From: Bacteroidales bacterium
Lineage (GTDB): Bacteria; Bacteroidota; Bacteroidia; Bacteroidales; WCHB1-69
Assembly (NCBI GenBank): GCA_017395245.1
Contig: JAFPVR010000107.1
Span: 9,575 to 73,574 of the forward strand
Length of the DNA: 64,000 nt
Direction: 5' to 3'
The notes under the pieces are model-generated. The model saw only the letters and a program-made list of their open reading frames with translations, ran no database searches and was not told where the DNA came from. Shown in pieces: positions 8,391 through 53,954 of this stretch (position 1 is the first letter of the stretch; each line of letters opens with the position of its first letter). A program made the position numbers and the translations under genes.

Positions 8391-8418
8391 GTAGAGACGC
8401 AAAATATTGCGTCTCTAC
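8391..8418. repeat. GTAGAGACGC palindrome family, copy 1
   Basis: GTAGAGACGCAAAATATTGCGTCTCTAC, 22 nt after the yicC stop. Confidence 0.85.
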
Positions 8419-8428
8419 GACCCCCGAT

Positions 8429-8638
8429 AACCAATCACAATTCACCAATCACCAATCACCAATCACAATTCACCAATCACCAATCACAATTCACCAATCA
8501 CCAATCACAATTCACCAATCACCAATCACAATTCACCAATCACAATTCACCAATCACAATTCACCAATCACAATTCACCAATCACCAATCACAATTCACC
8601 AATCACAATTCACCAATCACCAATCACAATTCACTATA
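8429..8638. repeat. Heptamer tandem array, 30 units of CACCAAT (A) / CACAATT (B)
   Basis: Unit order, parsed by hand: a'BAAABAABAABAABABABABAABABAABc'. It ends 2 nt before the der ATG. Confidence 0.95.
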
Positions 8639-8640: not shown

Positions 8641-9945
8641 ATGGGAAACATATTGTCATTAATAGGTCGGCCTAACGTGGGGAAGTCCACGTTTTTCAAC
8701 CGCCTCATACAGGCGCGGGAGGCCATTGTGGACGCCACCGCCGGCGTGACGCGAGACCGGCACTACGGCAAGTCCGACTGGAACGGTTACGATTTTTCGG
8801 TGATTGACACCGGCGGTTACGTGGTGGGCTCCGACGACATTTTCGAGTCGGAAATCCGCAAGCAGGCGGCGTTGGCCATTGAGGAGTCGGATGTCATCGT
8901 TTTTATGGTCGATGGCCGCGAGGGATTGACCCCGTTGGATGAGGAAATTGCCGACATTTTGCGCAAGAGCAAGAAGCCTTACTACCTGGCGGTGAACAAG
9001 ATTGACAGTCCGAGTAACTACTTCGATTACACGGAGTTCTATGCGTTAGGTATCGGGGAAATCTATCCCATTTCGGCGGTTTCAGGCAGCGGCACGGGCG
9101 AATTGTTGGACGAGGTGGTGAAGCACTTTTCCAAAGACAAGGACGACCTCCCCGACGATCTGCCGCGTATTGCCATCGTGGGCAAACCGAATGTGGGTAA
9201 GTCTTCGATTATCAATGCGTTCCTCGGAGAGGACAGGCATATTGTGACCCCGTTGGCCGGCACCACCCGCGACACCATTTTCACCCGCTACAAGAGCTTC
9301 GGTTTCGATTTCTACCTCATTGACACCGCCGGACTGCGCAAGAAGAGCAAGGTGGAGGAGAGTTTGGAGTTTTACTCCGTGATGCGGGCCGTACGCTCCA
9401 TCGAAAATTCCGATGTCTGCATTGTGATGGCGGATGCTTCGCAAGGTTTTGACTCCCAGGATCTTAATATCTTCGGATTGTGCGCCCGAAACCACAAGGG
9501 CATAGTGTTGGTGATGAACAAGTGGGATTTGGTGGAGAAAGACACGCACACGCACAAGAATTTCGAAGATGCGTTGAAGAAGCGGATTGCGCCGTTCACC
9601 GACGTGCCGATTATCTTTACGTCTGTAACCGAAAAACAGCGCATTTACAAGGTATTGGAGACGGCCATCCAGGTCTATCAGAACCGCCAGCGCCGGATTT
9701 CCACCTCGGAGCTGAACAATACGCTGCTGCCCATTATTGAGGAGACGCCACCGCCGATGAATAAAGACAAGGTGATCCGTATCAAATATGTTACACAATT
9801 GCCGATTGCTTACCCGACCTTCGCGTTCTTCTGCAACCTGCCGCAGTATGTCGTGGATTCGTACAAACGCTTCTTGGAGAACCAGATCCGCAAGAACTGG
9901 GATTTCTCCGGTGTGCCGATTGAAATTTACTTCCGAAAGAAATAG
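8641..9945 (+). CDS. der: Ribosome-associated GTPase Der/EngA
   Basis: Two G domains ([24 protein letters not shown]) plus a KH-like C-terminus. Confidence 0.9.
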
Positions 9946-9948
9946 CGA

Positions 9949-11259
9949 ATGAAAAAACTATTCATAGAAACGTACGGCTGCCAGATGAATTTCGCGGACA
10001 GCGAGGTGGTTGCCTCCATTTTGAAGGATGACTACACGCTGACGAAAGAGATTTTAGAGGCCGATTTAATCCTCATAAACACCTGCTCCATCCGCGACAA
10101 GGCCGAACAACGCATCCACAAGCGTTTGAAGGAATTAGAGGCTTATAAGCGCAAAAAACGGACCATACAGGTCGGCTTGTTGGGTTGCATGGCCGAACGG
10201 ATGAAGGAGGAATTATTACAGACCGAGCCGGTCTTGGACTTCATTGCCGGTCCGGACGCGTATCGCTCTTTGCCGCAGCTGATTGCCGATTCGCAGCACG
10301 GGCATACTTCCTTCAACGTATTGCTCTCAAAGGAAGAGACTTACGACAACATTATGCCGGTGCGCTACGATGCCAACGGTGTGTCGGCGTTTGTTTCCAT
10401 TATGCGCGGTTGCAACAATTTCTGCTCCTACTGCGTGGTGCCTTACACGCGCGGTCGCGAGCGCAGTCGCAGCCCGAAAACCATCCTCAGCGAAATCGAG
10501 GATTTGTTGAAAGACAATTACAAGGAAGTCACGCTGTTGGGGCAGAATGTGAACTCCTATTACTGGAAAGAGGGCGACGAAGAGGTCTCCTTTGCGAAAC
10601 TGATGGCGATGGTGGCGGAAATGTCGCCGGAACTGCGCGTGCGGTTCGCCACATCGCATCCCAAAGACCTTTCCGACGAGTTGATTGATACGATTGCCCG
10701 CTACGACAATATCTGCAAGTGCATTCATCTGCCGGTACAATCGGGCAGTGACGAAATGCTGCAGAAGATGCGCCGCGTCTATACGCGGGAGAGCTATCTG
10801 GAACGGGTGCGGAAAATCAAGGAAGTGCTGCCGGATTGTGCTATCACGACAGATATTATCGTGGGATTTTGCGGCGAAACCCTTGACAATCACCAGGATA
10901 CATTGTCGATTATGCGTGAGGTCGGCTACGAGTACGCTTACATGTTCAAGTATTCCGAACGCGGCGGCACGTTAGCCTCCAAGCAGTATCCCGACGACAT
11001 TCCCGACGAGGAGAAAACCCGCCGTTTGGAGGAGGTCATCGCGCTGCAAGGAGAACTTTCCATGGCGAGCAACCGCCGCGACGTGGGCAAAACTTTCCGC
11101 GTTTTAGTTGAAGGTGCTTCCAAACGTTCCGACGACCAGCTCTTCGGCCGCAACAGCCAGAACAAAGTGATTATTTTCCCACGCGGCAACCACCAAGTTG
11201 GCGATTATGTGGATGTGACGGTGACGGAATGCACGCCGGCGACGTTATTAGGCAGTTAG
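9949..11259 (+). CDS. miaB: tRNA (N6-isopentenyl-A37) methylthiotransferase
   Basis: MKKLFIETYGCQMNFADSE..., radical-SAM motif CNNFCSYCVVP, TRAM-like C-terminus. Confidence 0.9.
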   Translation: MKKLFIETYGCQMNFADSEVVASILKDDYTLTKEILEADLILINTCSIRDKAEQRIHKRLKELEAYKRKKRTIQVGLLGCMAERMKEELLQTEPVLDFIAGPDAYRSLPQLIADSQHGHTSFNVLLSKEETYDNIMPVRYDANGVSAFVSIMRGCNNFCSYCVVPYTRGRERSRSPKTILSEIEDLLKDNYKEVTLLGQNVNSYYWKEGDEEVSFAKLMAMVAEMSPELRVRFATSHPKDLSDELIDTIARYDNICKCIHLPVQSGSDEMLQKMRRVYTRESYLERVRKIKEVLPDCAITTDIIVGFCGETLDNHQDTLSIMREVGYEYAYMFKYSERGGTLASKQYPDDIPDEEKTRRLEEVIALQGELSMASNRRDVGKTFRVLVEGASKRSDDQLFGRNSQNKVIIFPRGNHQVGDYVDVTVTECTPATLLGS

Positions 11260-11317
11260 TGGTTAGTGGTTAGTGGTTAGTGGTTAGTGGTTAGTGGTTA
11301 GCGGTTAGCGGTTATGG
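11255..11317. repeat. Heptamer tandem array GTTAGTG x6, GTTAGCG x2, GTTATGG x1
   Basis: Parsed by hand. The miaB stop codon TAG (11257-11259) is part of the first unit. Confidence 0.95.
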
Positions 11318-11368
11318 GGGGATAGTATGTCCGTTAAACCCGAAATATATTAAAACATTTTCCAAAAA

Positions 11369-11420
11369 GGGCTGAAAGCCCGACGTATGTCAGCCCAGGG
11401 TGAACGCAGTGAGCCCTGGG
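11369..11420 (+). repeat. GNA-triloop double-hairpin element, copy 1 (subfamily A)
   Basis: GGGCT-GAA-AGCCC, 11-nt spacer, CCCAGGG-tgaaCGCAGtgag-CCCTGGG. It ends 22 nt upstream of the rlmN ATG. Confidence 0.8.
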
Positions 11421-11442
11421 TCGAATAAACGATGAATGAACG

Positions 11443-12483
11443 ATGAACGATATCCGAAATATAAAATATGATGCGTTGGTTTCGTTTTTGACGGCCAACG
11501 GTGAAAAACCGTTTCGGGCGAAACAGATTTGGACGGGATTGTGGAAGCGGGGTGCGGGTTCGTTTGACGAAATGACCGATCTCTCCGTGGCATTGCGGAC
11601 GAAATTACAGGAGAATTTCACGTTCCATAGGGCGGAAATTGTCGAAGAGGCGCATAGTGCCGACAAATCAGCCAAGTTTTTGTTGCAGTTCCACGATGGC
11701 AAGATGGTCGAGGGCGTGCTCATTCCGAGCAAGGAGCGTGTCACCGCGTGCCTCTCCACGCAAGTCGGATGCCCGTTGCATTGCGCGTTTTGCGCTACCG
11801 GCACCATGGGTTTTATCCGCAACCTCCACTACAGCGAGGTCATTGACGAGTACGTACTGCTCAACAATCGGGCGCAAGAGATTTACAATCAGCATATTAC
11901 CAACATCGTTTTCATGGGGATGGGTGAGCCGTTGCTCAATTTCGACAATATGATGACCGCCATCGACATCCTCACGGGCAAGGACTATTTTGCATTGTCG
12001 CCGACACGGATTACGCTATCTACTGCGGGCATTATCAAGGGCATCAAAGCCTTGGCAGACAGAAATTTCCGTTGCGGATTGGCCATTTCGTTGCACAGTG
12101 CTGATCCCAATGTCCGCGGGCAAATTATGCCGGTCACGGAAGGCAACCCGCTCCACGACCTGCAGGCGGCATTAGCTTATTATCACCAGAAAACCGGCGA
12201 GCGCATCACCATCGAGTATTTGTTGTTATCGAAGGTCAATGATTCGGAAAAAGCGGCCGAACAATTAGCTCGTTTCTGCCGTCCGTTTCCTGTGAAAATC
12301 AACATTATCGAATACAATTCCACGCCTGATTCACTGTTCCACAAATCGGATCCGGTACGCAAACAGGGCTTCATCGCCGTTTTGGAGCGTTGCAATATGG
12401 TGGTGAACATCCGCCAGAGCAAGGGCCAGGACATTGCCGCGGCGTGCGGGCAGTTGGTGCGGAAAACGGTTAACGGATTGTAG
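11443..12483 (+). CDS. rlmN: 23S rRNA/tRNA (adenine-C2)-methyltransferase, radical SAM
   Basis: ...GEKPFRAKQIW..., Cys cluster CPLHCAFCATG, 346-aa length. Confidence 0.9.
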   Translation: MNDIRNIKYDALVSFLTANGEKPFRAKQIWTGLWKRGAGSFDEMTDLSVALRTKLQENFTFHRAEIVEEAHSADKSAKFLLQFHDGKMVEGVLIPSKERVTACLSTQVGCPLHCAFCATGTMGFIRNLHYSEVIDEYVLLNNRAQEIYNQHITNIVFMGMGEPLLNFDNMMTAIDILTGKDYFALSPTRITLSTAGIIKGIKALADRNFRCGLAISLHSADPNVRGQIMPVTEGNPLHDLQAALAYYHQKTGERITIEYLLLSKVNDSEKAAEQLARFCRPFPVKINIIEYNSTPDSLFHKSDPVRKQGFIAVLERCNMVVNIRQSKGQDIAAACGQLVRKTVNGL

Positions 12484-13238: not shown

Positions 13239-14630
13239 TCACTGTTCCCGATGCCGCAAGTCCACTACAATTTGCGGATACTTCTCCCGCAAATGCGCGG
13301 CCGTGCGCTCTGCGAAATAAACCGAGCGATGCTGGCCGCCGGTGCAGCCGAAATTGACCGTCAGATGGGTGAACTTGCGTTCCAAGTAGTTGTCCACCGA
13401 CATGTCCACCAACGCACATACGTGATTCACAAAGGTTTCCACCTCTTGATATTGTTCTAAATATTCTTTCACGCAGTCGTCCTTGCCGGTGAAAGTGGCG
13501 TATTTTTTCTCGCGACCGGGATTGGGCAGGGCGCGGCAGTCGAAAACAAAGCCGCCGCCGTTGCCGGAGTTGTCTTCCGGAATCCCTTTCTTGTACGAGA
13601 AACTCTGTACGGTAACCGTCAACACGTCAGGGTTTTCCGATATTGGGGCCACGTAGCTGTCCACTAACGTTTGCAACACTTTCCGCAGTTCGGGCAATCC
13701 TTCCGGCAACGCATTCTGTTCCAGCAAGTAACGCATATTGCGGATGGCGTAGGGAACGCTCTGCAGGAAGTGCGTCTTCCGCTCGAAATAGCCCCGGTAT
13801 CCGTACGCACCCATCGCCTGCATAATGCGGATAAGTGCAAAGGCGTTGAAAGCGGCCTTGAACTGTTGCCGGTCAACTGGGATGTACTTTCCCAGATTGT
13901 CCAAGTAGCATTCCAACAGTTCGTTACGGGTTTCGGGCGAGAGGTCGGCCTTGGCATCATAAAGCAGCGAGGCAATGTCGTATTGCAATGCGCCTTTCCT
14001 GCCACCCTGATAGTCGATGAACCAAACGTCGTCTTCGAAAACCATAATGTTCCGCGACTGGAAATCCCGGTAGAGGAAAAAGTCATCCTCGACACTAAGC
14101 AGGTAGTCCATAAACCGCTGATAGTCATCCTCTAACAGCTGCTCGTTAAACGGGATGTAGGCCATCTTGAGGTAGTAGTACTTGAAGTAGTTGAGGTCCC
14201 ACTGCATGGATTGGCGGTCGAAGGCGGCGCGGGGGTAGGCCACCGACATGTCCAACCCTTTTTTCGCCGTCATCTGGAACTTGGGCAAGGCTGCCACCAC
14301 TTTCCGATAGTCGTCCATAATCTCTTGAAAATCACCATTATCCTTCCGAACTTCGCACAGTTTGTCGTAAAGAGTCTGTTTTCCGAGATCGTTGAGCAGA
14401 TAATGTCTCTCGTCCTCGTGAATGGCCAGCAGGGAGGGAACCTTCAGCCCTTGCGCGGCAAAGAAGCGGGTATACTCGAAAAAGGCGCGGTTCTCCGCCA
14501 CGTCGTCATTGTACACGCCGATGAGGGTGCTGCCGTCTTCGAAGGTGAAGCGGTAGTAGCGCCGGTGCGAGCCGGATTGCGCGAGGGGGACGCAGGAGGT
14601 GGGGGAGGCACCGACGTGGGCGGTGGCCAT
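13239..14630 (-). CDS. Fusion protein: AmgK/APH-like sugar-kinase domain plus RapZ C-terminal domain
   Basis: Kinase motifs LYRDFQSRNIMV and WFIDYQGG. The C-terminus FSYKKGIP...DCRALPNPG...FGCTGGQHRSVYFAE matches the RapZ C-domain. The start is trimmed from 14795 to the ATG at 14630 because 14671-14738 is a repeat element. Confidence 0.75.
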   Translation of the reverse strand: MATAHVGASPTSCVPLAQSGSHRRYYRFTFEDGSTLIGVYNDDVAENRAFFEYTRFFAAQGLKVPSLLAIHEDERHYLLNDLGKQTLYDKLCEVRKDNGDFQEIMDDYRKVVAALPKFQMTAKKGLDMSVAYPRAAFDRQSMQWDLNYFKYYYLKMAYIPFNEQLLEDDYQRFMDYLLSVEDDFFLYRDFQSRNIMVFEDDVWFIDYQGGRKGALQYDIASLLYDAKADLSPETRNELLECYLDNLGKYIPVDRQQFKAAFNAFALIRIMQAMGAYGYRGYFERKTHFLQSVPYAIRNMRYLLEQNALPEGLPELRKVLQTLVDSYVAPISENPDVLTVTVQSFSYKKGIPEDNSGNGGGFVFDCRALPNPGREKKYATFTGKDDCVKEYLEQYQEVETFVNHVCALVDMSVDNYLERKFTHLTVNFGCTGGQHRSVYFAERTAAHLREKYPQIVVDLRHREQ

Positions 14631-14670
14631 TGCGGTTATCGTGTCTGCGGCTGTCGCCTTGTCTGTAATG

Positions 14671-14738
14671 CCCCACACTGCGCTTTGCTTGTGTGGGGTT
14701 AATTGCACTTCGTGCGTGTTGCCTCTTCGAGGCTGCTC
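14671..14738 (-). repeat. GNA-triloop double-hairpin element, copy 5 (subfamily B, with an extra mini-hairpin)
   Basis: Sense strand: GCCTC-GAA-GAGGC, then GCAC-GAA-GTGC, then CCCCACAC-aaGCAAAGCgca-GTGTGGGG. Confidence 0.8.
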
Positions 14739-14784
14739 AGGGAGGTTATTCATATATGTGGTTATTCGATCGTTGCCTATTGCC

Positions 14785-16041
14785 TTAATTGTCATTCAAC
14801 TTGATGAAACAAAACAACATAATCGTAAACGCCCAGAGGGAGGAGCCGCCGTAGCTGATGAAGGGCAAGGGGATGCCGATGATGGGCAGCAGGCCGGTGG
14901 TCATGCCGATGTTGATGAAAAAGTGGAAGGCGATAATGCCCGCGATGCCATAACCGTAGTAGCGGACAAACGGATTACGCTGTTTTTCAGACAGTTTGAG
15001 AATGCGGAAGATGAGGGCGCCGAAGAGGCCGAAGACGACCAAGGTGCCGAAGAAACCCCATTCTTCGCCAATGGCACAGAAGATGAAGTCGGTGCTTTGC
15101 TCGGGCACGAAATTGAGTTTCGTTTGCGTGCCTTTGAGGTAGCCCTTGCCGAAAAGTCCGCCCGAGCCGATGGCAATTTTCGACTGGTTGAGGTTGAAGT
15201 CGGCGCCCAGCGGGTCGGAGGTTTTGCCCAAAATGGTGTCAATGCGCTGCTTCTGGTGCGGTTCGAAACCGTGCTCGTAAAGGAAGTTGACGGAGAATAC
15301 GAACACGATACAGGCCACGTAGACGATGACGTTGCGTCGCATTTTTTTCTTCTTCGTGCGGTTGGCAATCATAAACCCGATGAAAACGGCCGTAATCAGG
15401 GCAAGGGAGTAGGTTTCGTTGAATTTCAGGGTGATGAAGGCCAGGATTGCCGCAATGATGCCGAGTACCAAAAACTCCGCGCTGAATCCTTCGCGGTAGA
15501 AGAGGATGATGAAGGAGAAGAAGACAAGTGCCGAACCTGCATCGTGCTGCAACAATGCCACGATGACCGGGATGAAGATGAGGGCGAACTGCACAATCCA
15601 CACGTTGCGGCGCTGGCTTTCGGTCTTGCCCTCCTGCATGAACTTGGCCAATGCCAACGCCGTGGCCACTTTCATGAATTCCGTAGGCTGTATGCTGAAA
15701 CTGCCGATTTTTATCCACGACTTTGCGCCGTTGATTTCCGCCCCGATGAACAGCACCAAAATCATCAAAAAGAGACAGAACAGGTAGAAAAAATAGGCGT
15801 AATGTTGTATGATACCGCTGTCTATCAACAAGATGACGGTGGCTAAGAAGAAAGAGGTCCCGATCCAGAGCATCTGTTTTCCGTAAGGTTGCCCAAAGTC
15901 GAAAATCGGGGTGGAACCGTCGGGAATGTAGCAGGTGGAGTAGATGGTGATCCAGCCGATGACGACTAAGGCGAGATAGTAAACGATTAGCCTGACATCG
16001 AAGCCTTTGGAGAGTTTGTTATAGGGTTCTAACTTCGGCAT
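14785..16041 (-). CDS. rodA: Rod-shape-determining protein RodA (SEDS family)
   Basis: A 418-aa polytopic FtsW/RodA/SpoVE-like protein directly downstream of PBP2. Confidence 0.85.
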   Translation of the reverse strand: MPKLEPYNKLSKGFDVRLIVYYLALVVIGWITIYSTCYIPDGSTPIFDFGQPYGKQMLWIGTSFFLATVILLIDSGIIQHYAYFFYLFCLFLMILVLFIGAEINGAKSWIKIGSFSIQPTEFMKVATALALAKFMQEGKTESQRRNVWIVQFALIFIPVIVALLQHDAGSALVFFSFIILFYREGFSAEFLVLGIIAAILAFITLKFNETYSLALITAVFIGFMIANRTKKKKMRRNVIVYVACIVFVFSVNFLYEHGFEPHQKQRIDTILGKTSDPLGADFNLNQSKIAIGSGGLFGKGYLKGTQTKLNFVPEQSTDFIFCAIGEEWGFFGTLVVFGLFGALIFRILKLSEKQRNPFVRYYGYGIAGIIAFHFFINIGMTTGLLPIIGIPLPFISYGGSSLWAFTIMLFCFIKLNDN

Positions 16042-24539: not shown

Positions 24540-24790
24540 TAGGAGCTTCGGCATTCTTGCCGAAAATTTTAGGAGATTCGGCATTCCTGCCGAAAGTCGT
24601 TAATGTCGTTCTGTGGCATTCCTGCCGCACCTCCTATTTTAATGTGACAGGAATGCTGCGGTCCCTATTTAATGCGGCAGGAATGTCGCGGCTCATGTTT
24701 TAATGCGGCAAGAATGCCGCGGCTCATGTTTTAATGCGGCAAGAATGCCGCGGTTCATGTTTTAATGCGGCAGGAATGTCGCGGCTCCTA
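24540..24790. repeat. REP array (8 hairpin cores GGCATTCYTGCC / GGCARGAATGYC) flanking the RAYT 3' side
   Basis: Two TAGGAG-oriented units, one doublet, then five units with a 31-nt period (TTTTAATGCGGCAAGAATGCCGCGGCTCATG). Confidence 0.9.
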
Positions 24791-25454
24791 AAGTGTATTC
24801 GTCAGTATTTAAGTACTGTGGATTGTTTTGAATATAGGTTATGTAGTGCAGGAAGTTGTTGAAATTTCTCACCATGCGGTCGAATATACCCGATTGCCAA
24901 ATAGTGCCCTTTTGACCCAGAACCTTGTTGATAGAATGTGCGGAAAAGCCCTTCACTCTGGAAAATACGGTCGTGACATTATGTCCGTTCATGGGTGTGA
25001 GTAATACGTGAACATGGTTGGGCATAATGACATAGCAATGGAGGATATAGCGTTTCCCGTCATAGAATAGAAGAGCATCCTCTACAATTTTCCTTATATC
25101 GGGTCTTTTAAGAATGCAACTACCGTATCCCGCATCTATCCATCTGTCACACTTTACGAGAATGTTATGATCGTATTCTTCTTGTACCTCTTGGCTCCAG
25201 GGGTAAGGGTGTGCTTTCATCCATTCCTGTTTGTATGCTTTCAGTTCCTCAATTTTCGACTGTGGGATTGAATCTGCCAAACGGAATGTGACAAATTGCG
25301 TTTTACCGTCCTGATGCCAATGCGGCAGATTTGTCCCCCAAATGTTGACATATTTGTTTTTTTCGAGGAATTGATAGGGTCTTTGGCATTCTTGCCGAAG
25401 CCCGTTAGCGTCATTTTGCGACAAGAATGCCGCGGTTTTAAGTTTTGTCTTCAT
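24762..25454 (-). mobile_element. REP-associated tyrosine transposase (RAYT; IS200/IS605-type Y1 HUH transposase)
   Basis: ...NLPHWHQDGKTQFVTFRLADS..., HUH motif MPNHVHVLL, C-terminal Tyr motif LHYITYIQNNP. It is flanked by REP arrays. Both ends of the ORF overlap REPs, so the exact start is uncertain. Confidence 0.8.
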
Positions 25455-25542: not shown

Positions 25543-25669
25543 TAGGAGTTTCGGCATTCTTGCCGAAAATTTTAGGAGTTTCGGCATTCTTGCCGAAAAT
25601 TTTAAGAGTTTCGGCATTCCTGCCGAAGGTTGTTAATAACGTTCTGCGGCAGGAATGCCGCAGCTCCTA
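25543..25669. repeat. REP array (3 direct 30-nt units plus 1 inverted, forming a REPIN-like doublet) on the RAYT 5' side
   Basis: TAGGAGTTTCGGCATTCTTGCCGAAAATTT x2, then TAAGAGTTTCGGCATTCCTGCCGAAGG...CTGCGGCAGGAATGCCGCAGCTCCTA. Confidence 0.9.
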
Positions 25670-25717: not shown

Positions 25718-25745
25718 GTAGAGACGCGGCGCGCCGCGTCTCTAC
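25718..25745. repeat. GTAGAGACGC palindrome family, copy 2
   Basis: GTAGAGACGCGGCGCGCCGCGTCTCTAC, 4 nt after the MFS stop. Confidence 0.85.
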
Positions 25746-27492: not shown

Positions 27493-27519
27493 TTTGCGGC
27501 AAGAATGCCGCAGCTCCTA
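27493..27519. repeat. Solo REP (GCGGCAAGAATGCCGCAGCTCCTA)
   Basis: It has the same core as the RAYT-flanking REPs. Its CTCCTA tail supplies the TAG stop of the 76-aa gene on the minus strand. Confidence 0.8.
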
Positions 27520-31598: not shown

Positions 31599-31626
31599 GA
31601 CTTAAGACTTAAGACTTGAGACTTGA
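31599..31626. repeat. Heptamer array GACTTAA x2, GACTTGA x2
   Basis: Parsed by hand; lies between the pyrE stop and the atpH promoter. Confidence 0.85.
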
Positions 31627-31675
31627 GAAAAAACACAGATCAAATGTTAATCTTGTCACATCGCATCTCATGTCT

Positions 31676-32454: not shown

Positions 32455-35400
32455 ATGAGGAGGGCAGTAGCCATATTGATGTTGTGGATGTTGTGCTGCG
32501 GATGGATTTCCGCACAGCAACAGCATTTCCCGTATAATGTTGATGTGCAAATACTTCCCGGGCATTGCTACGACGATTCCCACCTCATCTTCACCTTGAC
32601 GGATGATAACGGCAACATAATCCAAATCGATCCCCAGACCCACAACGCGGTGAATCTCGGCCAGTACCCGTTGTACAATGTCCAGTATCATTACCAAAGC
32701 GTTTCCGGCGGGCTTGGGGTGCATTACGATTATGACAATGACATTATGCTATCGGCGGGCACCTATTGCGTGGGGGTTGTCGCAGAAATCCCTGCGGCTG
32801 GCGGAAGTTACACACAAGTGGACACCACCTTCTGCAATGTCCAGGTCACGACATCCTATGACCACTTGGAAGCCACGGCCCTTTCCAATGTGGCCTACGA
32901 CAATGATGGTGACGTGGAAAGGTATGGCTTTCGGGCCTCCTTCCACTGCGCCGATGTAGGACGCATACAGTTGCGTATTGTCCAGGGGTCTTTCCCTTAT
33001 ACCGTGACCATTCTTGATGAACAGCAGGATACGGTCAGACATACTGTGTTCTATTATCGTGCTAACAGTGGCAATAATCCCTATGCCGCAAGTTATCGCG
33101 ACTACTATACTTTCGATAGCCTTCCCATAGGGACATACTCCATATACGTATCCGATTCATGCGGATATACCGTGCCGTTAGCATTCAACATACCAGATTA
33201 TGAGCCTGCCCGGTATTTGGCACTTGTGAAATCTGACCTTTCAGGTTGTTTAGATGAAACCGTAGTCCCTTTCGTAGTCGAAAGAAGATACCCTTCAGGG
33301 ATCGGCGCCATCTGGTGTAATTACAATTATTCCTATATGGACAGCATCCTGATGTATCGTTTCATTAACCCGGGAGGCGATACCACAGAATGGAAAAACA
33401 TAAACACGCCTGGCTATGCTGCCACATGGGTTTCCGTTTATGACACATTCCCAAGTTATTGTAATATCTTCTACGATACTATCAAGATGCAATTGCATGA
33501 TTTGTGCCATGACACGCTGATGACGTATTCGTTCCGATTTCTTCCCCAGTTCGGGTTTTCCGATTCGATAGTTGAGGTTTATCAGCAAGATACGATCATT
33601 CATGACACCTGCGCCACCCATCTTCCAAATGGAGTCTCCACGCAGACGTACAAAATTTGGGGAAGTACTTGGACCGGTGCAGGAAAGACTATTTACGGGA
33701 GCGCCTATAGTGCTTATCCGGTGCCATTTCGCTATTACAGATGTCCGCTTTCGTATAATATTTGGTCCTTGCCGGATTCCACGCTGTTAGGACACGACCA
33801 GTCTGATGAATTCACGGGATTGGGTACTTGGGAGACCTACTTTGCGGATACGAGCCTCCATGTGTACGTCTCTGTGACGGATGCCCAAGGTTGTACGTTA
33901 GCGGATAAAGATACTGTATTGGTTTACCAGACAGAGCCTGTGGATGAGTTGCTTTTTTGGTATGAGTGTCATAACGACAAAGACGATGACGGGAAAGACC
34001 ATTGTTGTGCGGATCGCTACTTGTGGATTCAGGAACACGGGGTGGATGCCGACACATTTCGCCGGAATATGACCCTTCGCCTGATTGAGAGCCCTCTGTA
34101 TAATCAGTTCAATTTCACAGCGATACGACAAGACGGTGTATGGACGGTCACGCCCGACGACCCGAACAACCATTCCACCTACCTGGAGTTTTCCTACGAG
34201 GACGGATGGCGCGCTACTGTCCGCGACTCTGTCTGCCTGCCTCCCGGACGTTACACGTTTGAGGTCTCCACAGACTGCGGTGTAGATACGATTACGTATT
34301 CATGGGCAGGTTATTATTATGACACCCTTGACTTTGTTTCCGCCCCGCAATATGAAATTCAACAGCTTTGCGGCGACATGGTGTTCACGCAAATATCCAC
34401 AGGTCTTGTGAATTACATGTATTTTATTGACCCTGAAGTTAGCAATGACATACCTGAGGAGACGATTCCTAACTACGCGTGTTCAAGTTATTCTCCAGAC
34501 GGCGGTAGCGACTACAGGGACTCGCATGGAAGAAACGTATTGGTATTTTCTATACCTGGAACCTATTCCATTACAACATACGCTTATAACTGGTATTGTT
34601 CCAATTGCGCGGATTGGTGTAGTGAATATCACTACCATTACGACACCATTACAGTTGCCTTCTCCTATGTCGATTTTGACATGGCGGCCGCATTGTTGTG
34701 CGACGCCTCGGCAACAACGGGAATCGTGACGGCGCAAGCCATCAACGGAAACTCGCCCTATACATACACCCTGTATAGCCAATGGGGTGCCACCGGTGAT
34801 GTCATCGCCACCAACACCACCGGCTTTTTCGATAATGTGCCCATGACCGTGGGGCAGCATTTTTCCGTGCAGGTGACAGACTCGTGCCAAATTAGTTTTT
34901 CGGTCAACCTCACGGCGACGTTGCTCACTCATGGGAGCCTGGTGTGGGAACAGAACGCCAACACAGGACTCCACTGTGCGGGTGATACCGTGCAACTCAC
35001 TGCCATGAACTTTCCTCCGCCGGCAACATACCAGTGGTCGGGGCCGAATGGCTTTAGCAGCACTTCGCAGACAGTCGATGTGGTGCTGCCTGACTACAGT
35101 GAAAATGGTTGGTACACCGTGGAAATCCTCAACAGCGACATCTGTGGTATGAGTGTCTTTGACAGCATTTTGGTGTCTATGGCACCCGATCCCCAGGTGA
35201 CCATTACGGGGGATACCACTGTCTGCCCTGGCGGTTCTCTCATTTTGCAGGCAAGCTCTTCCATCGGGGAGTCAAGCTATTTTTGGAGCACCGGCGACAC
35301 CACCTCGACCATTACCGCCACACAAGATCAGGCCACCGAATACACCGTGACCGCAACCTCCCCGGTCGGCTGTACGGGTACGGCCTCAAAAACCGTTGAA

Positions 35401-38400
35401 ATACAAGCCCCCAACCCGATTAGCACCCACGTCTATCTCTGCTCCGACTCCACGACTACGCTCACCGCCCGCGCGGCCGACGCATACGCATGGAGTACAG
35501 GTGCCACCACAAGTTTTATAACTGTTTCAGCAGCAGGAATCTATCGTGTGACTGCCACACCTTCCGATGGATGCTCCGTGGTGGACACTTTTGTGGTCAC
35601 TACCGTGAAGGTCAATGGCATCTCCAACATTGATATCCCCGACATCTGTGCCGGCGACACTGCCGCCATCACCGTGGGGCATGCCGCCTCCTGTAATCTC
35701 ACCATTATCACTCACGAGACTATTTTAGCTCTCAATGACACCGTTTTCCTGCCCGACGGCGCCGACTGCCTTCCATACGGTTGCTCGTACCAGTCATCGC
35801 TGCACTTCGCCGGCTATGAGGACACTGCTAAAGTGAACAGTGTGGATGACATACGTTATGTGCGGCTCAATATAGAGCATTCATACGCGGGTGACATCTA
35901 TATCAACATCACCTGCCCGAACGGACAGAAAGCAGATATTATAAGGTGGGGGGATTATCAGCAGTTTCCTTCAGATGCTCAAACTTATTGTGCTTCCGAT
36001 ATTTCCAATAGTTCCAAAGGATGGCAAAGCGATGTAGAAGGGAGTTACAATGCATCGCAAGGTACAGATTTTGGAGTGCCCTATAATCATAGTGATTCGG
36101 GATTCCCTTGTGACGCCACTCGACCAAACAATGCACCGGGTACAGGTTGGAACTATTGTTGGTCCAACAATACTTCCGAGGGATATACTTACGCAGAAGG
36201 CACGGGCAGTTTGATATATCGGGAATGTAATGCGGTTTTCAACTACGATGCGACTCCCACTTACATTACTTGGCCGATACCAATGGCGGTATACCCAAAG
36301 TCTTTCGATTCCTCCAATGTGGCTGCCGGAACACAATTCTACCATCCTGACGAGTCTTTTGACAGTTTGGTCGGATGTCCGTTGAACGGGGACTGGTACA
36401 TTGAAGTTTTAGATGGCATCAATGTTGACAACGGCTATATTTTTGGCTGGGAGTTAGCCTTAACTCCTGACATCCAGATGATTGAGTATGTCGATGTGGT
36501 GAGTACGACAGTGGATGGTCCGTGGGTAACGGCCACCTCCGACTCCTCCTTCCTCTTCACGCCACCCGCCAATTTGCCCAATGACACAACCATCAGCTAC
36601 ACCTTCCACTGCCACAGTCCGTTCGGGTGCGGCTACGACACGGTGGTGAGTGTCACTTTCCATCCCCGACAGGATATTGTCATCGACACGACCGCCTGCA
36701 ACAGCCTTGTCTGGAACGGGGTCACGTATACTACGGACACCACTTTTACAGATTCCCTGACGAATATTCACGGGTGCGACAGCATCATTACGGTCAATAT
36801 TCATGTCATCACCACACCCTCTGTCGATATCATAGGATCGCACTATTTTTGTCCCGGCGATACAGTCATGCTTACCGCCGTTGCGGGAGGACAGGCGCAA
36901 TATCTTTGGAGCAACGGGGAAACAGATTCCACCATTACGGTTACGGAAGCGGGCGTTTACACCGTCACCGCCTATTTCCCGGGCGGTTGTTCGGCCGAAT
37001 CCGATGAATTTCATCTTTTCGAGGTGGAAAACCCCATCTTAGGCGGTTTTTTGAACGATATGGTGGCAGGTGATACGCAGACGGTGGTTATCGGCACTAT
37101 GGCGGGCGATAATCTCCAATACCAGCTGCCGCAGTCCACGCTCACCTACTCGACGGTCACATTTTTGCCCGACGGCGAGCCTTGCGGTGACCCGCCGAGC
37201 TGCTCCTACAAGGCCACGATGTCCTTTTCCGGTTTCCCTGAAACGGCTGTCATCCATTCCGCAGACGAAATACGGTATATCCGGCTGAAAGTAGAGCATT
37301 CCTGGATCAAGGATTTGTACATCAACTTGACCTGCCCGAGCGGAAAAAGTGCCGATATTCTCAAGAAGTTCAACGGAAACAGCTCTTCCCCGTGTTTGGA
37401 TTCCATCAGTCCTTCGCACAGAGGGTGGCAGGACAACTATTTTGCGTCAACCAACACTTCGATTTATTTCGGCTATGCTTTCTGGAAGTCGGACAATGGG
37501 AATCGATGTGATCCGAACAGACCTGACAATCAACCCGGTATAGGATGGAACTATTGCTGGTCGAACAACACGACCGAAGGTTATCAGTATGCGCCGGGCG
37601 CGGGCAGCCTGATTTACGAACCTGAAAATGTGCACTCACATACGGTCGATTACCTGACCAAGTATGTGGTGGATTCCTCTGATGCGGCGGCCGGCACGAA
37701 CTTCTACCATCCGGATGTCCCGTTTGACAGCTTGGTGGGCTGCCCCGTCAACGGACTTTGGACGGTTGAGGTGATCGACGGCATTCAAGGCGACAACGGC
37801 TATATTTTCGAATGTGAGCTCTCGGTGGCGGAACAGTTGTGCAGTACGCATTATGCACACGTGTCGGAAATCGGTTTTGAGGGATTGTGGGCAGAAAACG
37901 GTTCCGCGGATTCCTCCTTTGTCATCACCCCGCCTGCGGATTTGGCTAACGACACGGTCGTTGGTTATACGTTCACGTTGACGGACGAAAACGGATGTGT
38001 CTTTGATACAACGATTTACATTCACATTTATGCTCATAAGCATACCGATCTTTACGATACGGTTCCTACCGACGAATTGCCGTATGTATGGAACGGGCCG
38101 ACGATTACGCATGCGGGCTGTAGCGACACATTGTTGTTTACAACGCACGGTGCCGACAGTGTGGTGACGATGCATCTGTCCGTGATTTACCCGTTTGATA
38201 CGACCATTTGCACGAATGTTTTCCCGCTGAGTTGGCATGGGCACACGTTCAATGGTGTCGACACCCTTACGATTTCCCATCCGTTGGCTTGCGGTTGCGA
38301 CAGTATGGAAGTACTGACGGTGGCGGAAAGCCCTGTATATCAGGATACTTCATACGTTTCGGTCTGCGAAAGTAACTTGCCGTATATGTGGCGTGGTCAG

Positions 38401-41400
38401 TCGTTGAACTCAACTGGTGTCTATGCCGATACGCTGTTCACCGTTGCCGGATGTGACAGCATCCTCGTTTTGAACCTGCGAGTTGAAGATGTCTATGAAA
38501 TCCCGTTGCAAGAATCTATCTGCCAAGGTGATACATTCCTATTCTTTGGCCAGATGCTTACGCAATCCGGCGTCTACACCGATACGCTGCAAACGAGCTC
38601 GGGATGCGACAGTGTCATTATCTTGAATCTGACCGTCAATCCGACCTACAACATTCCCTTCACGGTCACCATTTGTCAGGGCGATGCGTTCTTTTTCTTT
38701 GGTCAATTACTTACCGAAGAGGGAGTTTACGCCGATACGATGCAGACCGTTGCTGGCTGTGACAGTGTGATTACCTTGACCTTGGTCGTCAATCCGACCT
38801 ACAACATTCCCGTTTCGGGTGCTATCTGTCAGGGCGACACGTTCCTCTTCTTCGATCAGCAGCTTACCGAAGAGGGTGAATACACCAAAACGCTGCAAAC
38901 TGTCAAGGGTTGTGACAGTGTGATTACCCTGACACTGACCGTCAACCCGACTTACAGCATACCGGTTTCGGAAGCCATTTGCGCGGGCGACACGTTCGAT
39001 TTCCATGGGGAATCGCTCACCGAAGCGGGTGTTTACCTCGATACGTTGCAAACTATCAGCGGCTGCGACAGCATTATTGTCCTGAATCTTTCGGTCAACC
39101 CAGTCTACTATATTACTTTGTCGGATACCATTTGCGCAGGCGACACGTTCTATTTCTTCAGTCTGGCTCTAACCTCGGCGGGTGTCTATACAGACACTTT
39201 GCAGTCTATCAGCGGCTGCGACAGTATCATTACGTTGAATCTGGTGGCCAATCCTGTGTATAACATCCCTTTATCAGCGGAAATCTGTGCGGGCGACACG
39301 TTCCTGTTTTTCGGCCAAAGTCTCATGACGACGGGTCTCTATACGGACACCTTGCAGACTGTAAACGGCTGTGACAGTGTCATTTCCTTGCATCTGACGG
39401 TTAATGAGGCTACGAGCGAGACAATTGTTGTCAACATTGTGGAGAACGACCTGCCGTACGAAATCAATCAGACGAGTTACGATTCTGCCGGCACCTATAT
39501 CCAACATCTCACCAATGCCGCCGATTGCGACAGCCTGTTGACGATTCATTTGTTTGTGGCGAACAACACGATTACGCATCAACAAGCCATGATTTGTCAG
39601 AACATGCTTCCGGCTGTATGGCAAGGCCATGTCTGGCAGGGGGCGGGAGTTATTATTGACACGTTGGAGGCCGCTAATGGCGCGGACAGCATTGTGGTGC
39701 TGACTCTGACAGTGGGACTGCCCACGGAAAGTGAACTTTACGATACTATATTACAGAATAACCTTCCGTATGTGCTGAACGACAGTAGCTATTTTGCGAC
39801 GGGTGTTTATGTACAACAACGGATTAATGTCGCTGGCTGCGACAGCACTATCACATTTCATTTGACAGTATTGCTTAATCAGCGGACTGAATTGGACAGC
39901 ACCGTGTGCGACAGCCTGTTGCCTGTGGTTTGGAACGGGATAACGTTTACCGATGCAGGTGTGGATTCGGTCTTGTTGGAGGCATCTAATGGTGTTGACA
40001 GTACCGTGGTGATGACGGTGAATGTAAAACCCTCTTCTGATAGTACGTTGATTGTAAGCGTGATAGAAAACAGTCTTCCCTATGTGCTCAACGATTTTGA
40101 ATACGGTGATCCGGGGACGTATACCCAAAGTCTCGATAACGCTATCGGGTGTGACAGCACGCTTACGCTGGTGCTCACAGTCCTGTACAATGTGCGTACG
40201 GAGGTGGACAGCGTCGTATGCGACAGTTTGCTGCCAATTACTTGGAACGGTGTGGAATTCACGGGTGCGGGCGCAGATTCCGTCCTGTTAACAGCCTCCA
40301 CGCAAGTCGATAGTCTGGTGGTTATGACCTTGACGGTGAATTATCCGACGACCGGATTGGTGACGGACACCGTCGTGCAGAACAACCTGCCGTATTTGTT
40401 GAATGGTACAGAATATGATACCACGGGTATTTATCTCCAACATCTGGCAAACGTTTCCGGTTGTGACAGCACGCTCACCCTTGATTTGACGGTGTTGTAT
40501 AATGTGAAAACATACTTGGACAGCACAGTTTGCGATAGTCTGTTGCCTGTGCAATGGAATGGAATCACATTCACCGAAGCGGGTATGGACACGGTTATCT
40601 ACCAGGCTGCAAATGGGGCGGATAGTATGGTGGTTATGACGTTGAATGTCAACGCTTCGTCATATAACACTATAATAGTCAACGAAATAGAAAATAATCT
40701 GCCGTACACGCACAACGGTATTGATTACGATTCTTCAGGAATATATATTCAGCACTTGGAGAATGCGTTGGGCTGTGACAGCACGCTCATCATTGAGTTG
40801 ACAGTGCTGTACAATGTGCGGGCCGAGGTGGACAGCGTCGTGTGCGACAGCCTGTTGCCAATTACTTGGAACGGGGTGGAATTTTCTGGTGCAGGCACGG
40901 ATTCCGTCACCATATTGGCGGCCTCCGGTGTAGACAGTACGGTGGTGATGACCGTGACGATAGCCTATCCGACGGAAGGAACGTTCGCGGACACGGTAGT
41001 GGAAAACAGCCTGCCGTATCAGCTTAACGGTTTCTCTTACGATTCGGCGGGTGTTTATACGCAACATCTGACCAATGTTGACGGTTGTGACAGTACGCTC
41101 ACGTTTGGGCTGACTGTGCTGTACAATGTGGCTTCCGAGGCGGATAGTGCGGTCTGTCCGAATGCGCTGCCGATAGTTTGGAACGGCAAGACGTTCACAG
41201 CAGCGGGGGTGCAGTCGGCTGTGCTGACTGCTGCTAACGGGGTGGACAGTACAGTGACCATGACGGTCACTACGCTGCCGAGCCCAACGGCCCACATTTC
41301 CGGACCTTCTGTGCTTTGTGCCGATTCGTACACCACGCTAACGGCTGACAGTGCCATGTCGTATCTTTGGAGCAACGGCATGACAACGCAGAGTATCAAT

Positions 41401-44718: not shown

Positions 44719-44746
44719 GTAGAAACGCAAAATTTTGCGTCTCTAC
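44719..44746. repeat. GTAGAGACGC palindrome family, copy 3 (left arm GTAGAAACGC)
   Basis: GTAGAAACGCAAAATTTTGCGTCTCTAC sits between the convergent giant gene and ispD and overlaps the ispD stop by 4 nt. A degenerate partial copy (...CACGTCTCTAC) lies at about 44678-44705. Confidence 0.8.
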
Positions 44747-45453
44747 GATTCCCATGAAAAATTTTTTTCCAAGGTAACAATATCTTCCGGGTAGGTGAGC
44801 TTCATATTGGCGACCTCACCGGGAACGATGAATATCGGCACATCAGGACAATAGCGGAGGAGCACGCCGCAGTCGTCGGTGCTGGTGAAATTCGGGTCTT
44901 GCAGGGCTTTGCGGTAGGCTTCCCGGATGACGTCTATGCGGAAGGCCTGCGGGGTCTGGGCGCAGCGCAGCCGCTTGCGTGCAGGTATCGCGGTGATGAA
45001 ATCCCCGTCATCGGTCACTTCGAAAACCGTGTCTGTGGCGGGAATGGCGACAGCCACGGCAGGATGGGCCTCTAATGCCGTAACAGTTTCGGTGATAATC
45101 CGTTGGCTCACCGCCGGACGGGCCGCATCGTGGAAGATGAGGTTGACATCGCTTGCCCCGTCGTAGGCATTGATGGCGGCCAATGTGGAATAATGCCTTT
45201 CCGCACCGCCGGGCAGCAGTTTGCGCACCTTCCGCCAGCCATTTCGGTCGATAATCTCCTGCATCTGCGGCAGATAGTCGGCGTTCATCACCACCGCAAT
45301 CTCGTCGATGCCTTCGTTTTGCTCGAATGCCTCGATGCTGTGCTCGATGACGGTTTTCCCCGCCAACGGCAGGAACTGTTTCGGCAGCGCAGAACCGAAC
45401 CGCTGGCCACTGCCACCGGCGAGGATTACTGCTATGTTCCTGATGTCGTTCAT
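44743..45453 (-). CDS. ispD: 2-C-methyl-D-erythritol 4-phosphate cytidylyltransferase
   Basis: MNDIRNIAVILAGGSGQRFGSALPKQFLPLAGK... Confidence 0.9.
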   Translation of the reverse strand: MNDIRNIAVILAGGSGQRFGSALPKQFLPLAGKTVIEHSIEAFEQNEGIDEIAVVMNADYLPQMQEIIDRNGWRKVRKLLPGGAERHYSTLAAINAYDGASDVNLIFHDAARPAVSQRIITETVTALEAHPAVAVAIPATDTVFEVTDDGDFITAIPARKRLRCAQTPQAFRIDVIREAYRKALQDPNFTSTDDCGVLLRYCPDVPIFIVPGEVANMKLTYPEDIVTLEKNFSWES

Positions 45454-45480
45454 CGTATTATTATCGTCATTCGTTCCAAT

Positions 45481-45536
45481 CCCAGGGTTGCGGCTTCGCC
45501 TTACCCTGGGCTACCGAGCTTTTGCCCCTGCGGGGC
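45481..45536 (-). repeat. GNA-triloop double-hairpin element, copy 2 (subfamily A)
   Basis: Sense strand: GCCCC-GCA-GGGGC, 12-nt spacer, CCCAGGGT-aagGCGAAGCcgca-ACCCTGGG. It ends 27 nt upstream of the ispD ATG. Confidence 0.8.
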
Positions 45537-45572
45537 TGCTCAAGGAATAATACTATATATAAAAACTGCCCA

Positions 45573-45620
45573 GTGTTCAAGTTTCAAGTTTCAAGTCCAA
45601 AGTCTTAAGTCTTAAGTCTA
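45573..45620. repeat. Heptamer array (GTGTTCA, AGTTTCA x2, AGTCCAA, AGTCTTA x2, AGTCTAT)
   Basis: Seven phased units that abut the yitT stop codon. Confidence 0.85.
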
Positions 45621-49963: not shown

Positions 49964-49980
49964 ATTTTTATTTTTTGATT

Positions 49981-50037
49981 CCCCACACTGCGCTTCGCTT
50001 GTATGGAGTTATTGAAATTTTGTCTCTTCGAGACTGC
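49981..50037 (-). repeat. GNA-triloop double-hairpin element, copy 3 (subfamily B)
   Basis: Sense strand: GTCTC-GAA-GAGAC, 13-nt spacer, CTCCATAC-aaGCGAAGCgca-GTGTGGGG. The two G.T pairs work only on the sense strand. It ends 17 nt upstream of the adaptor ATG. Confidence 0.8.
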
Positions 50038-50048
50038 TTTAAGATTCT

Positions 50049-50069
50049 ATAACCAATAACCAATAACCA
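50049..50069. repeat. Heptamer array ATAACCA x3
   Basis: It abuts the tolC-like stop codon. Confidence 0.85.
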
Positions 50070-51445: not shown

Positions 51446-51500
51446 CAAAGTCAAAGGTCAAGGTCAAAGGTCAAAGTCAAAGGTCAAAGTCAAAGGTCAA
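51446..51500. repeat. Tandem array AAAGTC/AAAGGTC (6/7-nt units, 13-nt super-unit)
   Basis: CAAAGTCAAAGGTCAAGGTCAAAGGTCAAAGTCAAAGGTCAAAGTCAAAGGTC. Confidence 0.85.
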
Positions 51501-53948: not shown

Positions 53949-53954
53949 AATACC

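Follow-up and report, generated by a model that had tools for sequence, protein, structure and literature searches.

Repetitive extragenic palindromic (REP) elements have a classical role as barriers to mRNA decay, and REP-mediated rearrangements occur in enterobacteria. Cyanobacterial STRR repeats are intergenic heptamer direct repeats, and hairpins capped by GNA triloops were reportedly described in the 1990s by Hirao and Yoshizawa as minihairpins such as d(GCGAAGC). Here we compare these systems with a family of hairpin modules in a 64,000-nucleotide stretch of DNA (the window; positions 9,575 to 73,574 of the forward strand of contig JAFPVR010000107.1, GenBank assembly GCA_017395245.1) from a Bacteroidales bacterium, and we analyze two genes of the window, rlmN and ispD, which lie behind such modules and whose products begin with the same seven residues. 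Our overall reading is that the hairpins are common filler between head-to-tail genes, that the RlmN start is ancient, and that the matching start of IspD arose as a short extension specific to this lineage, for which rlmN was perhaps the source.

The modules share the GNA triloop with the minihairpins, since every module stem ends in C-GNA-G (CGAAG, CGCAG, or CGTAG). The heptamer GCGAAGC itself is present in hairpin 2 of one module subtype (B) and in copies of another (A2) that lie before miaB; the copy before ispD in the window has GGCGAAGCC instead. In contrast to biophysical model hairpins and isolated natural sites, however, the modules form a dispersed repeat family. REP elements, bacterial interspersed mosaic elements, and the REPIN-RAYT systems of Enterobacteria and Pseudomonas (e.g., PMC3116915 and PMC3337134) are short, GC-rich, imperfect palindromes dispersed intergenically, including at junctions inside operons. 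Their subtypes combine into composite modules, their presence varies at orthologous sites, and copies from the same genome are alike, all of which is also true of the modules. Compared with these elements, the modules differ in having a single orientation relative to transcription, in lying near the next start codon, and in having only GNA triloops; they also are not inverted REPIN pairs, and in the 64-kb window and related flanks no RAYT transposase gene was seen, although no search aimed at one was made.

Heptamer repeats of the TAACTGA type have been found upstream of starts in Beggiatoaceae, Cyanobacteria, and five Bacteroidetes (MacGregor 2015, PMC4679880). Like these, the 7-nt arrays of the window fill the space from stop to start codon in one orientation, with copy numbers that vary among relatives. 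They differ in having many units (GTTAGTG, GACTTAA, CAGTTAG, CCAATCA, GTGATTA, etc.), none of which is TAACTGA in the forward sense, and in being followed by hairpin modules. An Rfam scan of the whole window (gathering and E-value thresholds) returned only a tRNA and one marginal match, on the wrong strand, to Acido-Lenti-1 (RF01687), a likely RNA of Acidobacteria and Lentisphaerae that is not cis-regulatory and whose function is unknown (Weinberg et al. 2010, PMC2864571) and that has been annotated in Tannerella genomes (bioRxiv 10.64898/2026.02.09.704811). The module before rlmN, which scores above the curated threshold, shares with this family the arrangement of an 8-bp hairpin followed, after ~12 nt of linker (GGCUA..UA..CG), by a hairpin of 5 bp. 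However, the match is antisense to the genes and the host phylum differs (Bacteroidales versus Acidobacteria and Lentisphaerae), and we treat it as an architectural resemblance rather than as membership.

The start regions of rlmN and ispD

The features of the two loci are as follows.

9949-11259, + strand: miaB, co-directional upstream of rlmN (open reading frame [ORF]; Pfam domains UPF0004, Radical_SAM, and TRAM)
11255-11314, + strand: array of 8.6 copies of the heptamer GTTAGTG, from the miaB stop codon on (TRF and sequence)
11364-11421, + strand: A1-type hairpin module before rlmN (nhmmer, RNA folding, and covariation)
11369-11381, + strand: hairpin 1 of this module, GGGCTGAAAGCCC
11393-11421, + strand: hairpin 2 of this module, GCCCAGGGTGAACGCAGTGAGCCCTGGGT, with a GCA triloop and tandem G.A pairs
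11422-11442, + strand: rlmN leader of degenerate CGATGAA-type tandem units (2.3 copies of an 11-mer and 2.3 copies of a 7-mer, entering the coding sequence)
11443-12483, + strand: rlmN (ORF; Pfam RlmN_N and Radical_SAM), with MNDIRNI encoded by codons 1 to 7 (11443-11463)
45621-46565, - strand: yitT-family membrane protein gene, co-directional upstream of ispD (ORF, Pfam, and motif scan)
45576-45619, - strand: heptamer arrays of the GACTTAA and AACTTGA types, from the yitT stop codon on (TRF and sequence)
45479-45545, - strand: A2-type hairpin module before ispD (nhmmer and folding)
45536-45524, - strand: hairpin 1 of this module, GCCCCGCAGGGGC, within an outer helix CTTGAGC/GCTCGG
45511-45481, - strand: hairpin 2 of this module, GCCCAGGGT-AA-GGCGAAGCC-GCA-ACCCTGGG
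45454-45480, - strand: ispD leader, attggaacgaatgacgataataatacg, colinear with the rlmN leader
44743-45453, - strand: ispD (ORF; Pfam IspD and NTP_transf_3), with MNDIRNI encoded by codons 1 to 7 (45453-45433)

Translation of both ORFs bears out what an earlier inspection of the DNA letters (the sequence-only reading) had reported, namely, that the products of two unrelated genes, rlmN on the + strand and ispD on the - strand, have the same first seven residues, MNDIRNI. The degenerate 21-mer pattern for this peptide, ATGAACGAYATHMGNAAYATH, has only two matches in the window, the starts of these two genes, with 0 expected by chance. The common upstream hairpin is equally real, in that GCCCAGGG-N(4-30)-CCCTGGG matches only 11393-11420 (+) and 45481-45511 (-), with 0.01 matches expected, and ends 22 nt before the ATG of rlmN and 27 nt before that of ispD. 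As had been described, 4 of the 21 coding nucleotides differ, all of them synonymously (GAT/GAC, CGA/AGG at two positions, and AAT/AAC), and a tandem heptamer (two copies of TGAACGA, 11437-11450) crosses the rlmN ATG; TRF detects period 7 at 11436-11451 and period 11 at 11423-11447. The sequence-only reading had taken the synonymous-only divergence as a sign of selection, but this pattern carries no information because identical peptides permit no other kind of difference. Nor is the arginine codon a drifting synonymous pair: codon 5 of rlmN is always CGN, and in ispD alleles it is AGA, AGG (the window), AAA, AAG, ACG, CGG, or CGA, encoding Arg, Lys, or Thr.

The first four residues are alike in 0.39% of 5,174 within-locus gene pairs, with ~5-fold fewer matches for each extra residue, which extrapolates to ~0.02 expected 7-residue N-terminal matches per 42-gene window. 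A 7-residue match in one window is unusual, yet it is reachable in a large scan. Proteins identical to the RlmN and IspD of the window are found on ruminant gut metagenome contigs, and the closest genomes are metagenome-assembled genomes of uncultured rumen Bacteroidales; loci fetched from relatives are numbered L012, L045, etc. The comparisons cover the window and these related loci, and the fetched loci resample few junctions.

RlmN, the 23S rRNA/tRNA A2503 C2 methyltransferase, identified by PF21016 and PF04055, has 7,658 homologues with E ≤ 1e-50, whose N-termini are of the form MxDIRxI. Among the nearest 120 homologues (58 to 98% identity), nearly all full-length proteins begin M[NKEDT]DIR.I, and at 32 rlmN loci MxDIRxI is kept behind an A module, a B module, heptamer arrays that reach the ATG, or an unrelated upstream gene's terminator. 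Because MxDIRxI is present whatever lies upstream, MNDIRNI is ancestral to Bacteroidales RlmN. The proposal that the repeat supplied the rlmN start is thus refuted by the test that the sequence-only reading had itself set, in that orthologues down to 58% identity that have no module already begin M[NKEDT]DIR.I. CGATGAA-type leaders are widespread at rlmN loci (L012, L015, L018, L021, and L026) and resemble products of local duplication at the start of rlmN itself. The rlmN leader of the window has two out-of-frame upstream ATGs, of which the ATG at 11432 opens a 4-codon upstream ORF (uORF), MNER* (11432-11446), whose TGA overlaps the main ATG. At one relative's locus (L016, ~9970-10010, from RUG312), the 3' end of miaB appears to run into rlmN codon 2 (…GEYVDV followed directly by MIFDI…), with loss of the rlmN ATG, the miaB tail, and everything between them; either a deletion or a misassembly is possible.

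IspD, a cytidylyltransferase of the IspD family identified by PF01128 and PF12804, has the conserved N-terminal motif NIAVILAGGSGQRFG, which is of the (I/V)LAGGxGxR type. The modal start of 150 diverse IspD representatives is MxNIAV; [KR]NIAV is common and MNDI occurs in none of them. Distant relatives (57 to 60% identity) begin M[KR][KR]NIAV, and the rumen-clade proteins have ~3 extra, fast-changing residues (MNDIR, MNDIK, MNDIT, MNNIR, MNSIR, MTKIR, MNNIT, MKKQR, and MKKTT). At three loci (L053, L055, and L056) a heptamer array has replaced the first codon, so that translation of IspD has to begin at codon 4 (MRNVAV); the extension is therefore dispensable. We conclude that the ancestral IspD N-terminus is M-x-(R)-N-I-A-V and that MNDIRNI of the window IspD consists of a lineage-specific MNDI extension and the family's ancestral RNI(AV). 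The ispD leader has an upstream ATG at -17 that opens a 6-codon uORF, MTIIIR* (45470-45450), whose stop codon lies on the ATGA of the start. Two interpretations of codon 5 were dropped. One was that the window's AGG (Arg) derives from ACG or AAG (Thr or Lys); deeper-branching ispD alleles carry AGA, CGG, or CGA. The other was that AGA is native to ispD and marks a junction after codon 4, which was abandoned because the B allele has CGA.

The resemblance between the two genes continues from the hairpin through the leader and the start codon. From -26 to +21, rlmN (the window and L012) is 74 to 84% identical, and colinear, with A-type ispD and 54 to 59% identical with B-type ispD; over the same interval it is 71 to 80% identical with its own orthologues that have diverged leaders. 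When the leaders alone are aligned, rlmN versus ispD gives z = 4.1 to 5.3 (p ≤ 0.003), compared with |z| < 1.7 against 10 leaders that lie between the same modules and other genes. The repeat units occur in the same order in both leaders, CGAATGA(A), CGATGAnnnAA, CGATGAA, and CGATATY, and the shared block of leader and start can also be written CGAATGACGAT-ATGAACGAYAT. The first 21 nt of the L125 ispD agree with window rlmN at 20 positions. Of the cassette that the sequence-only reading had envisaged, the shared tract past the hairpin through the leader and start codon therefore stands, and the hairpin repeat as carrier of the start codon does not. Because identity from -26 to +21 reaches 74 to 84% and the leader z is 4 to 5, copying probably links the two 5' ends.

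Our main reading, to which we give a probability of roughly 0.5, is that the rlmN start region was copied ectopically onto ispD long ago and joined at the shared RNI. This would be the simplest single event, because RlmN's MNDI is ancestral and the extension, exactly NDI, precedes an RNI that IspD already had. The extension and ~25 nt of leader are colinear with the leader and start of rlmN. Gene conversion or template switch would have made a short copy of the rlmN initiation region that overwrote the 5' end of ispD in an ancestor of the clade, joining at the pre-existing CGNAAYATA (RNI) microhomology, and the copied ispD start would since have drifted (MNDIK, MNDIT, MNNIR, etc.). Such an event would resemble gene conversion or microhomology-mediated 5'-end replacement in that a tract of ~35 to 50 nt is common to non-homologous genes 34 kb apart and has its 3' boundary at an 8- to 9-nt microhomology. 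It would differ in being deduced here from sequence, with a direction that depends only on the RlmN N-terminus being ancestral. We know of no documented case in which only a leader and four codons were transferred between housekeeping genes.

Several observations weigh against such a copy. The IspD tails form a near-continuous series (MKKQRNI, MTKIRNI, MNSIRNI, MNNIRNI, MNDIRNI, MNDIKNI, MNDITNI, MNNITNI, and MKKTTNI), so a stepwise path in place exists; MNNIRNI or MNSIRNI starts are already seen at ispD loci that have an 11-nt spacer and no module, and these loci may be ancestral. Because the A2 and B alleles both have GGAACAAA, this 5' portion of the ispD leader is native to ispD. The leaders are of low complexity and rich in GAT and GAA in a slippage-prone genome, and independent tandem duplication could inflate their similarity. 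The agreement of 20 of 21 nt at the L125 start is the best of many pairs, 17 to 19 of 21 being typical. Finally, the trees available are support-less neighbour-joining trees, and recombination is evident (L045 and L050, see below).

Structure, placement, and turnover of the hairpin modules

When all the intergenic regions of the window are read, five junctions have the same layout, which is stop codon, heptamer array, AT-rich stretch, 5-bp hairpin, spacer, 8- to 12-bp hairpin, A-rich leader, and ATG. In addition to the modules before rlmN and ispD, these are as follows.

14670-14741, - strand: B-type module (GCAGCCTCGAAGAGGC, GCACGAAGTGC, and CCCCACAC..GTGTGGGG) between ftsW and an APH-like gene
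49980-50043, - strand: B-type module between gene 50070-51389 (putatively tolC-like) and an hlyD-like gene (MKKSKKLWW)
61306-61369, - strand: B-type module between a gene of 857 codons for amino acids and a gene whose product starts MSDSQQT

The three subtypes, A1, A2, and B, were set apart by eye and with nhmmer profiles; an initial MAFFT alignment of the two upstream regions misaligned hairpin 1 and was unsuited to defining them. A1 is GGGCYGNARGCCY and then CCCAGGGTGAACGNAGTGAGCCCTGGG; A2 is TTGAGCA-GCCCCG..GGGGC-AAAAGCTCGGTAG and then the CCCAGGG hairpin; and B is GCAGCCTCGAAGAGGC, then GCRCGAAGYGC, and then CCCCACAY..GCGAAGCGC..RTGTGGGG. Each copy thus has two or three GC-rich stem-loops, all with a GNA triloop as cap and C-G as the closing pair. 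The REP-type 5' tetranucleotide GT[AG]G is present only in A2 (GGTAG-CCCAGGG); A1 has GTCAG or GTCAA, and B has TTAAC.

All 5 copies in the window are intergenic, as are all 38 copies found in the window and its fetched relatives, which occupy 8 distinct junctions: der-miaB, miaB-rlmN, yitT-ispD, before the hlyD-like gene, ftsW-APH-like, before a lipoprotein gene, one in L013, and one at 61.3 kb. Where both neighbours could be called, every copy (32 of 32) lies between co-directional genes in the same orientation as the genes; counted per junction, such uniformity has a probability of 2^-8 = 0.004. Most copies end 13 to 32 nt before the next ATG. In hairpin 2 of A1, compensatory changes are seen at three pairs, and one U.G pair is invariant; read from the opposite strand, it would be C.A. 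On average the gene strand folds 2.9 kcal/mol better than its complement, with 43 versus 14 G.U pairs in 31 unique copies. The A1 module of rlmN folds at -28.2 kcal/mol on the + strand (z = -4.4) and at -22.4 kcal/mol on the - strand, and the A2 module of ispD folds at -34.2 kcal/mol on the gene strand (z = -3.4).

A motif scan for the -7 box TAnnTTTG within 200 nt upstream found it at none of the five module-bearing genes of the window and at 11 other window genes; upstream of yitT, 30 nt from the ATG, lies a canonical Bacteroidetes -7 box, TACTTTTG. Scans of both loci for sigma-70 promoters and intrinsic terminators found no gene-strand terminator, and the promoter model used is ill-suited to Bacteroidetes. 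Hairpin 2 lacks the U-run of an intrinsic terminator on the gene strand, the next letters being tcgaataaacg or attggaacgaa. The hairpins are best described as sense-strand stem-loops between co-directional genes that probably share a transcript, although one copy, that before rlmN, also looks like an antisense hairpin with a T-run behind it. The modules make up a dispersed, REP-like family that is lineage specific and apparently undescribed in uncultured rumen Bacteroidales. If they function at all, the modules may act as stable stem-loops within multigene transcripts, serving as RNA decay barriers or processing sites as REP elements do, and they may spread and be homogenized by recombination between copies. 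Variants are common to copies within one genome (the two L015 copies). In L047 (1400-1517), the A1 module before the hlyD-like gene is followed by ~5 tandem copies of a 23-nt unit, AGGTGAACGAAGYGAGCCCTGGG, which is the 3' half of hairpin 2.

Comparison of orthologous junctions shows that the modules turn over without altering the genes behind them. The der-miaB junction is only 3 nt long in the window (9945-9949) and in L014, L021, L026, and L027. Among other relatives (L012, L015, L017, L019, and L020), several have 100 to 150 nt of heptamers and an A2 module at this junction, and heptamers only also occur. Der-miaB thus allows a clean comparison of sites with and without the repeat, and MiaB begins MKKLFIE in every case. 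The junction before the hlyD-like gene has a B module in the window and an A1 module in L018, L047, and L055. At yitT-ispD the states are A1, A2, B, heptamers only, and a bare 11-nt spacer, and these are interspersed on the IspD trees, which are neighbour-joining trees without support values. Because the types are interspersed and recombination is evident, no ancestral module state could be read from these trees. In L045 and L050 the upstream 135 nt are identical, and the IspD proteins are 96% and 83% identical to that of the window, which places at the ispD start codon either a breakpoint of recombination or a chimeric join in the assembly. A-module copies also precede genes with unchanged, unrelated N-termini (MKKLFIETYGCQ, MKKSKKIWW, and MKKTLLL, the last two behind A1). 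Because gain, loss, and exchange leave the downstream N-termini unchanged, the modules come and go without bringing a start codon. Comparison of filled and empty junctions (der-miaB and yitT-ispD) shows only a possible 3-nt GAC direct repeat and none of the terminal inverted repeats expected of miniature inverted-repeat transposable elements.

Competing explanations for the shared start

The main rival to the copy, which we think possible but somewhat doubtful, is that the match is a coincidence that evolved in place and that no DNA moved. The unconstrained IspD tail would have drifted to MNDI, either by point mutations or by recruitment of an in-frame upstream ATG followed by an ATG-to-ATH change at codon 4, and both leaders would be slippage duplications of similar starts (ACGATGAAYGA). 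Such a history would fit the graded IspD N-termini, which are joined by single-nucleotide steps, and the methionine at position 4 in MNNMTNI, MKMTNI, and MNMTNI, a position that is itself the start codon in L053 (MRNVAV). It would also fit the MNNIRNI or MNSIRNI starts of the module-less loci with 11-nt spacers, the B allele MKKQRNI, which already agrees with rlmN at 14 of 21 nt including CGAAACATA, and the rlmN leader, which can be seen to be a local tandem repeat with the ATG inside it; a rate of ~0.02 per window for a 7-residue match is, moreover, attainable over many windows. However, a leader z of 4 to 5 is unique to the rlmN-ispD pair, both leaders have the same unit order and lengths although rlmN orthologues differ widely in unit pattern, and identity from -26 to +21 is as high as among rlmN orthologues. 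The change from MKKQ to MNDI needs at least 6 nt changes that exactly match the 12 nt of rlmN, and an MNDI-like start is seen in 0 of 150 diverse IspD representatives. The sequence-only reading's own proposal, that a mobile, repeat-derived cassette of hairpins, leader, ATG, and seven codons was inserted before both genes (a block of leader plus ATGAACGAYATH), now appears extremely improbable. Hairpin type, leader, and first codons are indeed common to both loci, the rlmN ATG does lie within a tandem heptamer, and modules are clearly gained and lost at junctions. Against this, RlmN has MxDIRxI in module-less lineages down to 58% identity; A1 and A2 copies before miaB, hlyD-like, and lipoprotein genes have other leaders and leave native N-termini intact; and at ispD the module type switches between A1 and A2 while leader and start stay constant. 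At ispD, too, MNNIRNI or MNSIRNI is already the start at module-less loci with the 11-nt spacer. In 805 kb of clade sequence, ATGAAYGAYAT is found at gene starts only for rlmN and ispD and no third gene has the block of leader and start, although the power of this search is limited because the same ~35 to 60 distinct junctions are resampled.

Selection for a common initiation or regulatory context is also quite unlikely to explain the match. Under this explanation, one trans-acting factor or reinitiation, without Shine-Dalgarno pairing, would keep the shared leader and mini-uORF alike. An upstream ATG is framed onto the ATGA of the start in every A-type and module-less ispD locus (8 loci have it at -17, and 3 at -8 or -5), rlmN of the window and of L012 has such an ATG at -11, and the leader is conserved across IspD proteins of 69 to 97% identity. 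On the other hand, the uORF is present in only 5 of 16 close rlmN loci and in no distant one, B-type ispD alleles and many rlmN alleles do not have the leader, and conservation of the ispD leader can be plain descent. The start-overlapping uORF, being constant in A-type and module-less ispD and patchy in rlmN, was therefore indecisive as a conserved feature. A broader form of this idea, which we consider unlikely, is that the ~45-nt block of purine-rich leader, mini-uORF, and first 4 to 7 codons might be a portable, non-Shine-Dalgarno initiation unit that was moved between essential genes by recombination in repeat-rich intergenic DNA and retained for joint post-transcriptional control of RlmN and IspD. 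It is very unlikely that the hairpins encode an antisense small RNA of the Acido-Lenti-1 family directed against rlmN and ispD. The RF01687 model scores 41.1 bits at 11368-11420 on the - strand, exceeding the gathering score (37), and hairpin 1 of this copy is followed by TTTTT on the antisense strand; the ispD copy is matched at 24.1 bits, below threshold and on the opposite strand. However, none of the further A1 and A2 copies, from 11 related loci (124 kb), reaches the gathering score, most copies do not have a T-run (CCAAGAG or CCATGAG), and module orientation always follows the flanking genes. The G.U pairs, the invariant U.G in hairpin 2, and the folding difference of 2.9 kcal/mol given above also favour the gene strand.

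Other repeats, annotation, and implications

Heptamer arrays are present in the window at 8430-8634, 11255-11314, 31599-31628, 45576-45619, 50049-50069, 51446-51580, 57588-57678, 59024-59053, and 60365-60521. Their units include CCAATCA/CAATTCA, GTTAGTG, GACTTAA, GTGATTA/G, and CAAAGGT; they often run from the stop codon on, and relatives differ in unit or copy number at the same junctions. A second hairpin family, GTAGAGACGC-loop-GCGTCTCTAC with 9- to 14-bp stems, is located at 8391-8418, 25718-25745, 53919-53950, and 61384-61411. Three of these four copies lie 4 to 22 nt after a stop codon, and the family begins with GTAG, a tetranucleotide typical of REP elements. Tandem repeats of 30 to 31 nt with a CGGCATTCTTGCCG-type hairpin flank gene 24762-25454 (at 24668-24787 and 25543-25627), and single copies of this hairpin type are found at 25612-25663 and 27495-27512. 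Convergent with ispD is a gene (32455-44682, +) for a 4,075-amino-acid surface protein of the SprB/CHU_C type (type IX secretion), which has internal 153-nt (51-amino-acid) tandem repeats at 38575-39058.

The modules also affect gene calls. Public calls for ispD relatives have false N-terminal extensions translated from hairpins (MWGRPEQTM... and MPTQGE..PWDTNDDNNTM...). In the window, the longest ORF of the APH/PapZ_C-like gene (13239-14795, -) runs through the B module at 14670-14741, and its true start is probably the ATG at 14630 (MATAHVG...).

The known functions of RlmN and IspD are unaffected by either the repeat family or the copy. Under the cassette idea, housekeeping genes would have received their start codons and N-terminal peptides from a mobile repeat, and the evidence does not support this. 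The repeat family does matter for annotation, since it causes over-long ORF calls and a wrong-strand Rfam match, and it offers a natural system in which to study the function of intergenic stem-loops in bacteria whose initiation is not led by Shine-Dalgarno sequences. If the portable initiation unit considered above were real, repeat-rich intergenic DNA would be a vehicle that shuffles 5' untranslated regions and N-terminal codons between unrelated genes. The probable ectopic copy of the rlmN initiation region, if confirmed, would be an example of the exchange of an N-terminal tail and 5' leader between unrelated genes.

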